Sequence record: PZ583738.1
Strand: one strand, 5' to 3'
DNA: 64,000 nt
Source: a phage
Shown: positions 44,865 through 45,248 of the stretch, piece after piece
Layout: each line of letters begins with the position of its first letter
How positions within the stretch are numbered: the first letter of the stretch is position 1
Position numbers and translations under genes: made by a program
The notes under the pieces: model-generated
What the model was told of the DNA's origin: nothing
Seen by the model: only the letters and a program-made list of their open reading frames with translations
Database searches by the model: none

Positions 44865-45248
44865 ATGCTTACATATGCAGAATTTTTAAATCGCAATACC
44901 ATCACCGAATCCGTACTGACTGAAGCTGGTAAATTTTCTTTAGTAGCCCCAGAAAAAGGCGGTGTTTCAATTGGCGACCGTGTTATGTTCAAGAAACCAG
45001 TTAATGGCGTTTCTTGGGGTATCGTAACTGGGTTTGGTATCAAAGCTAAAGATGTTAAAAACGCCGCCGCGCCTGGTGCTAAACTAGCTGGTTCCAAAGT
45101 TTCAACTTATATGGTTCGTCCTAAACAGTCTCCAGGTAATGGTGCCGCTGACTGGGTTGGTGCTCCAATCGAAATCGCTCGTGATAAATTCTTGAACATC
45201 ACTGACCGTGCCAACGAACGCGCTGCAATGGCATTCGCTCGCGGATAA
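44865..45248 (+). CDS. internal-protein-like protein with degenerate capsid-targeting leader (MLTYAEFL...LTE)
   Basis: 127 aa; TATAAATA late-promoter motif about 32 nt upstream; terminator hairpin downstream. Confidence 0.55.
   Translation: MLTYAEFLNRNTITESVLTEAGKFSLVAPEKGGVSIGDRVMFKKPVNGVSWGIVTGFGIKAKDVKNAAAPGAKLAGSKVSTYMVRPKQSPGNGAADWVGAPIEIARDKFLNITDRANERAAMAFARG

Follow-up and report, generated by a model that had tools for sequence, protein, structure and literature searches.

A probable internal head protein precursor with a T4 IPI-type leader, encoded downstream of the tRNA genes of a Gaprivervirus phage

The internal proteins (ips) of T-even phages enter the cell together with the DNA. 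The three that have been studied in T4, Ip1, Ip2 and Ip3, are injected and each disables its own type IV restriction enzyme, inhibiting a distinct GmrSD, while only their leader is common to all of them (PMC12373910). Mutagenesis by Mullaney and Black assigned capsid targeting mainly to leader residues 4 and 7 and processing to residues 8 and 10, and a leader carrying Asp10 was unprocessed, yet packaged (PMC9026906). Cleavage by the protease gp21 takes place after L/I-x-E, and propeptides range from 10 to 19 residues in length (PMC9026906). T4 IPI (Ip1) is made as a precursor of 95 residues; because its mature form, IPI*, retains 76 of these, the cut falls after ITE19, and translation of the T4 record gives a leader that reads MKTFKEFTSTTTPVSTITE and is followed by ATL.... 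The loci encoding such proteins in T-even phages are described as hyperplastic by Repoila et al. 1994, as cited in PMC3012670 and PMC12373910.

Here we analyse a 64,000-nucleotide stretch of phage DNA (record PZ583738.1, hereafter the window), the source of which is a VR20-like T4-type phage of the genus Gaprivervirus (best DNA matches to Escherichia phages DK-13, TH55, UPEC07, MN01 and VR20, at 93-98% identity). Besides seven canonical ip genes and the genes for head assembly, the window contains an open reading frame (ORF) at 44865-45248 that all records carrying it label "hypothetical protein" (Table 1). We argue that the product of this ORF is probably the precursor of an internal head protein, so far unannotated, that would enter the host along with the phage DNA. 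Most likely this is a hitherto unrecognised gene for a kind of protein that is well known in T4-type phages.

Table 1. Features of the ORF 44865-45248 and its surroundings, the ip and head-assembly genes of the window, and the distant homologues
Feature	Position or length	Strand	Details
CDS, putative internal head protein precursor	44865..45248	+	127 aa plus stop, ATG start
Capsid-targeting core, residues 1-8 MLTYAEFL	44865..44888	+	includes Tyr4 and Phe7; motif scan, matrix score
First predicted gp21 site, I13-T14-E15	44901..44909	+	L/I-x-E motif; cut after E15
Second predicted gp21 site, L18-T19-E20, then Ala21	44916..44924	+	predicted final cut; mature N-terminus AGKFSL...
Mature domain, residues 21-127	44925..45245	+	predicted SH3-like beta-barrel and C-terminal helix; no internal L/I-x-E
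rnaC remnant (T4 species 1 stable RNA), left cassette junction	44730..44743	+	first 14 nt, AGAAACGGCGCACC; alignment with T4 rnaD/rnaC, CJ20 and P479, BLAST break points
Cassette 5' region	44744..44825	+	26-nt direct repeat with hairpins
T4-type late promoter motif TATAAATA, gp55-dependent class	44826..44833	+	exact; 31 nt before ATG
Weak Shine-Dalgarno-like GGA	44854..44856	+	8 nt before ATG; read from sequence
Right cassette junction	45249..45250	+	homology with rnaC-containing phages begins again at AACACTTGCC, 1 nt past the stop codon
Intrinsic terminator, AGCCCC...GGGGCU and U-run	45286..45314	+	fold and alignments
Canonical ip genes (n = 7)	41263, 41604, 41885, 42183, 42495; 54782-55051, 55572-55871		first group, array after 57B; second group flanks denV
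Gp23	5524-7080	-	Pfam; head assembly
T4_CASP (gp22 scaffold)	7105-7920	-	Pfam; head assembly
Peptidase_S77 (gp21 protease)	7956-8591	-	Pfam; head assembly
Homologue P0003	202 aa		start MYTFKEFLVESELDLITEAKK
Homologue P0004	125 aa		start MKSFKEFMLSEKVIKG
Homologue P0005	134 aa		start MLTYNEFLEEKSGNNLTEAIVKG

Predicted product, relatives and proposed role

From the sequence we infer late transcription, packaging and cleavage of the protein encoded by this ORF. It would be made late and probably in abundance, its N-terminal capsid-targeting sequence (CTS) would bind the gp22 scaffolding core so that the protein is built into the prohead, and gp21 would then remove a propeptide of 15-20 residues, the new N-terminus most likely being Ala21. 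The basic 11-kDa mature protein would stay in the head with the DNA and be injected at the next infection. Its job, purely by analogy with T4 Ip1, Ip2 and Ip3, would most likely be to disarm an early-acting host defence such as restriction.

The product predicted after cleavage at E20 has 107 residues, a mass of 11.1 kDa and a pI of about 10.2-10.3, and is thus small and basic like the other ips. When AlphaFold was run on the single sequence the model was unusable (pLDDT 36), whereas an alignment of five sequences gave a pLDDT of 69 and a pTM of 0.63. In this model residues 1-21 have a pLDDT below 50 and appear disordered, except for a helix at residues 4-10, and the body is folded. It is predicted, with moderate confidence, to adopt a generic SH3-like barrel fold that corresponds to no known family, and the model yields no functional clue.

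Among GenBank phages the protein is present in only 16 records, all of them at least 98% identical. Only three distant relatives (P0003, P0004 and P0005) were retrieved when 1.84 billion representative proteins were searched exhaustively with HMMER and 5.8 billion with a profile; their bodies are 37-45% identical to the protein. These homologues open with MYTFKEFLVE.., MKSFKEFMLSE.. and MLTYNEFLEE..NLTE/A (here and below, slashes mark cuts, known or predicted), which are CTS-like leaders with L/I-x-E sites. All three are encoded on T4-like contigs, one of them Karamvirus-like, in the same tRNA-to-e.x region. Each gene has GATAAATA or AATAAATA ([G/A]ATAAATA) at a distance of 28-34 nt upstream of its ATG, and its stop codon is followed by a terminator. 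Scans of IMG/VR, JGI metagenome contigs and phage GenBank, including tblastn with P0005, returned no further members beyond VR20-type copies, and neither the protein nor its homologues matched a curated family in Pfam, PHROGs, PADLOC or the sequences of the PDB. P0003, the Karamvirus-like member (L007 1994-2602), has about 80 extra residues between its leader and the conserved barrel domain, an arrangement that fits a modular layout of leader and cargo.

A protein of this kind might also be packaged and processed as proposed and yet serve as a bulk basic, DNA-associated component of the head, acting in charge neutralisation or DNA organisation and not as an inhibitor of a defence. A pI of about 10.2 would suit such a role, as would the likeness of the predicted barrel to KOW, Tudor, PWWP and chromo domains, among which nucleic-acid binding is common. 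The same can be said of the codon bias of the ORF, which ranks fourth of 100 ORFs (by C-ending pyrimidine codons), beside gp23 and gp22, and which, together with Arg codons that are all CGY, suggests high expression. The distribution of the gene, however, speaks for something dispensable: because it occurs in only 16 of about 800 T-even-type records and is absent even from the close relatives CJ20 and P479, it shows the patchy pattern expected of arms-race cargo. Since, in addition, all three T4 Ips of known function are specific GmrSD inhibitors (PMC12373910), we consider a bulk structural role rather unlikely. Homology cannot settle whether the injected protein that we favour belongs among the GmrSD inhibitors, because those already known resemble one another in sequence only in the leader. 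We raise, as possible more than as likely, the idea that it represents a new family of injected anti-defence effectors, with a basic SH3-like fold unlike Ip1-3 and a double-cut IPI-type leader, directed against some host system outside the known GmrSD variants and housed in a hitherto unrecognised cargo slot created by deletion of rnaC.

Leader and predicted gp21 sites

The initial annotation had likened the N-terminus to the capsid-targeting leader, and a quantitative comparison bears this out. We built a position matrix from the seven canonical ip leaders of the window, leaving the ORF 44865-45248 out of the training set. With this matrix the ORF scored 15.3 bits and the T4 IPI leader 14.7, the best N-terminus of any non-ip ORF in the six frames reaching 5.4. 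A relaxed form of the core, [TS][YF].[ET]F[ILFM], occurs 11 times in the 128,000 six-frame residues, and eight of these occurrences fall at ORF residues 3-8 after an initiator Met, namely in the seven canonical ip genes and in this ORF; in ipA, which starts MNIKTY, the relaxed core lies at residues 5-10 and not at 3-8. By these sequence measures, the resemblance to the ip leaders is far above chance. The canonical leaders themselves vary, and include MNIKTYNEFLAE, MKTFNEFFNE, MKTYQTFITE and MLTYKEFITE.

Both targeting determinants, the aromatic residue at position 4 (Tyr4) and Phe7, are kept, and the family alignment shows no variation at M1, E6 and F7. At position 2 Leu replaces Lys, but the canonical ip at 55572 has Leu there too, opening likewise with MLTY. 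The canonical cut after ten residues is impossible because position 10 is Arg, not Glu. The 127-residue protein has exactly two L/I-x-E motifs, ITE15 and LTE20/Ala, and both lie within the leader, with equivalent LTE/A and ITE/A sites in the homologues P0005 and P0003. A first L/I-x-E that comes only at residue 15 is also seen in gene 41604 of the window's ip array (MKTFNEFFNESQLNE). The description of this leader as degenerate in the initial annotation does not hold: since the proven leader of T4 IPI likewise lacks Glu10, we classify the one studied here, with its ITE15 and LTE20/Ala sites, as a long propeptide of the IPI type.

The same features could be read as those of a relic, in which descent from an ip gene, or recombination with one, was followed by loss of Glu10 and a five-residue insertion that killed targeting or processing, leaving an unpackaged, cytoplasmic late protein, for instance a nucleic-acid-binding factor. 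Arg10 in place of the canonical Glu would be in keeping with this, as would the position of the gene outside the ip arrays, the annotation of VR20, in which the ip genes are named as such but this one is left hypothetical, and the basic SH3-like fold, which is compatible with a cytoplasmic nucleic-acid binder. Against it, residues 4 and 7 are the ones on which targeting mainly depends, a residue-10 mutant is still packaged (PMC9026906), and T4 IPI is proven to be packaged without Glu10. Moreover, codons 1-20 show no amino-acid change across five aligned phages, and the leader with its L/I-x-E/A site has been kept in four of four family lineages while the bodies diverged to about 40% identity, although these lineages are few, because the family consists of only four sequence clusters. 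We regard a relic leader as distinctly improbable, and a functional, IPI-type leader remains our preferred reading.

The gene, its cassette and its probable late promoter

The ORF, the N-terminus of which is MLTYAEFLNRNTITESVLTE (the translation opens MLTYAEFLNRNTITESVLTEAGK...), has no alternative in-frame start further upstream. In an alignment of the window with MN01, EAWsc9, VR20 and TH40, 33 sites vary within the coding sequence, of which 32 are at codon position 3, and the sole amino-acid change among the five phages is Gly32/Ala, a pattern that identifies the ORF, at the level of sequence, as a real gene under purifying selection. The idea that it is spurious and that the region belongs to a non-coding stable-RNA/tRNA transcription unit, to which its place between the rnaD-like RNA and the tRNA-operon terminator and the strong structure of the 237 nt upstream (z = -3.4) would lend themselves, is ruled out for practical purposes by these synonymous third-position substitutions, and is further opposed by the protein-level homologues in other phages and by Rfam, which gave zero matches over the ORF, as it did over the structured upstream region, rnaC and rnaD.

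As had been noted at the outset, the gene lies outside the main ip array, the ip genes being clustered at 41263-42716 and 54782-55871, and just after a tRNA and structured-RNA region, with tRNA-Met, tRNA-Arg and an rnaD-like RNA directly before it. The gene order around it (4, 2, 3, 1, 57A, 57B, the ip array, trna.4, trna.3, two tRNAs, stable RNA, the e.x genes, e, ip, denV and ip) is that of the T4 ipI-tRNA-e-ipIII segment. The window retains the rnaD-like RNA (from 44628; 44628-44743 compare with T4 L010:4909-5172) and has lost rnaC except for its first 14 nt. Where the window has 44743-45249, the Gapriverviruses CJ20 and P479 have about 148 nt, which alignment with T4 identifies as the body of rnaC. 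Sequence comparison thus indicates that the gene came in with a cassette of 506 bp (44744-45249), which stands in place of the rnaC body in the 16 sequenced phages. Because the 276-nt rnaD-rnaC region is matched over at least 80% in about 680 of 802 T-even-type records, the cassette represents the derived state.

Just upstream of the late promoter, the cassette carries a 26-nt direct repeat with a period of 34 (44763-44788 and 44797-44822). Within each copy lies a hairpin (44766-44780 and 44800-44814) that has a 6-bp stem and a GTG loop, and the two stems differ by compensatory GC-to-AT changes. The 13-mer core of the repeat, GAGCGGRYGGTGC, is found in the window only in the cassette 5' region, and once about 59 nt upstream of the homologue on L008. 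A scan of IMG/VR with a 14-mer hairpin motif gave only random GC-rich matches and was uninformative.

Several neighbouring features were also recorded. A 79-aa ORF (44388-44627) lies between tRNA-Arg and the rnaD-like RNA, whereas in T4 rnaD follows tRNA-Arg immediately; the ORF is hypothetical in relatives and Pfam-negative, and TH40 has unrelated sequence there instead. The next gene downstream (45338-45892) encodes a DUF7338 membrane protein, which is annotated in relatives as 'holin' or 'amidase-6 domain', and is preceded by TATAAATC in the window versus an exact TATAAATA in VR20 and TH40. Further away, the gene 4/2/3 region is interrupted by low-GC3 ORFs at 36944-37672 and 38478-39152, the second with an HNH-like motif, and their sequence suggests that they are homing endonuclease insertions.

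Turning to transcription, the initial annotation had placed an exact late motif about 32 nt upstream of the gene, and this is confirmed by the copy of TATAAATA listed in Table 1. The window contains 20 copies of the motif where 5.2 would be expected, and 0 of 100 shuffles reached 20. It lies on the plus strand in only five cases, and its strand always agrees with the orientation of the gene; since it switches strand together with the genes, these copies are probably real late promoters. The spacing before our ORF falls within the gaps of typically 18-31 nt that separate TATAAATA from the ATG of structural genes in the window (29 nt for gp22, for example), and no change in the motif is seen among the five close relatives aligned. 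Over the interval 44743-44864 the window differs from four relatives by 0-2 mismatches in 121-122 nt and by 1-2 gap positions. Going by T4 precedent, the transcript would start a few nucleotides downstream of the motif, at about 44839-44841.

The terminator beyond the gene also occurs in phages without the gene, in which it is preceded by rnaC. Most ip genes in the window have their own early-type promoter, whereas the ORF lacks one. Because it sits between rnaD and the tRNA-operon terminator, early transcription by read-through is possible, and the gene might be transcribed early in this way as well as late. The literature on the carriers (VR20, UPEC01/07, MN01, DK-13, vB_YenM_P8 and others of the 16 phages) yielded no virion proteome or transcript data; the subject of the UPEC07 paper is TadIV-1 (vs.3), a protein unrelated to the one described here.

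Significance and comparison with known systems

If our interpretation is correct, this gene adds an eighth candidate injected protein to this phage and defines a tiny new cargo family, for which the billions of proteins searched yielded just four sequence clusters. It would mean that genes for capsid-targeted cargo can occur outside the classical ip arrays, and that genome scans should not discard a leader because it lacks Glu10. As a candidate anti-defence factor, the protein could account for differences in host range between therapeutic isolates of Gaprivervirus. The mechanism class to which it would belong is already well established, so that nothing would be unprecedented in mechanism and the gain is incremental.

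The closest parallel is T4 IPI. Both have a long leader of the form M-x-T-[F/Y]-x-E-F without Glu10, followed by a spacer, I-T-E and the mature chain, as is apparent when the T4 leader, MKTFKEFTSTTTPVSTITE/A, is set beside MLTYAEFLNRNTITE/SVLTE/A. Both proteins are small, are encoded in the ipI-tRNA-e segment of the genome, and are non-essential and patchily distributed. They differ in their mature parts, which have no sequence similarity (BLASTP E = 0.47), and kinship to the mature domain of IPI was rejected on this ground. They also differ in the two tandem cleavage motifs of the leader described here, and in that the target of IPI is known, being the GmrSD of strain CT596.

The short-leader ips, of the T4 IPII/IPIII type, share the core of the leader: the gene at 55572 opens MLTY.EF, and those at 41263 and 54782 have EFL. 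Their mature parts are likewise basic, in the range of 5-11 kDa, and the ip gene at 54782 even has a comparable double site, LAE/SVLNE/, to set against the ITE/SVLTE/ of our ORF. Most of them, however, are cut at residue 10 (I/L-x-E10), where our ORF has Arg10, and the mature domains are unrelated. The short-leader genes, moreover, lie in two clusters and have mostly early-type promoters (GTGTAC-N17-TAxxAT rather than TATAAATA precedes four of the seven ip genes, at 41263, 42183, 42495 and 55572), whereas the gene described here stands alone behind its own exact copy of the late promoter motif.

Finally, like the hyperplastic ip loci of T-even phages, the locus combines variable cargo with a conserved leader and is present or absent among close relatives, and its conserved flanking sequence could support exchange by recombination. 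It differs from these loci in its insertion site, which is new: the cassette occupies no slot in the ipI or ipII/ipIII arrays, but has taken the place of rnaC, with rnaD on one side and the tRNA-operon terminator on the other.
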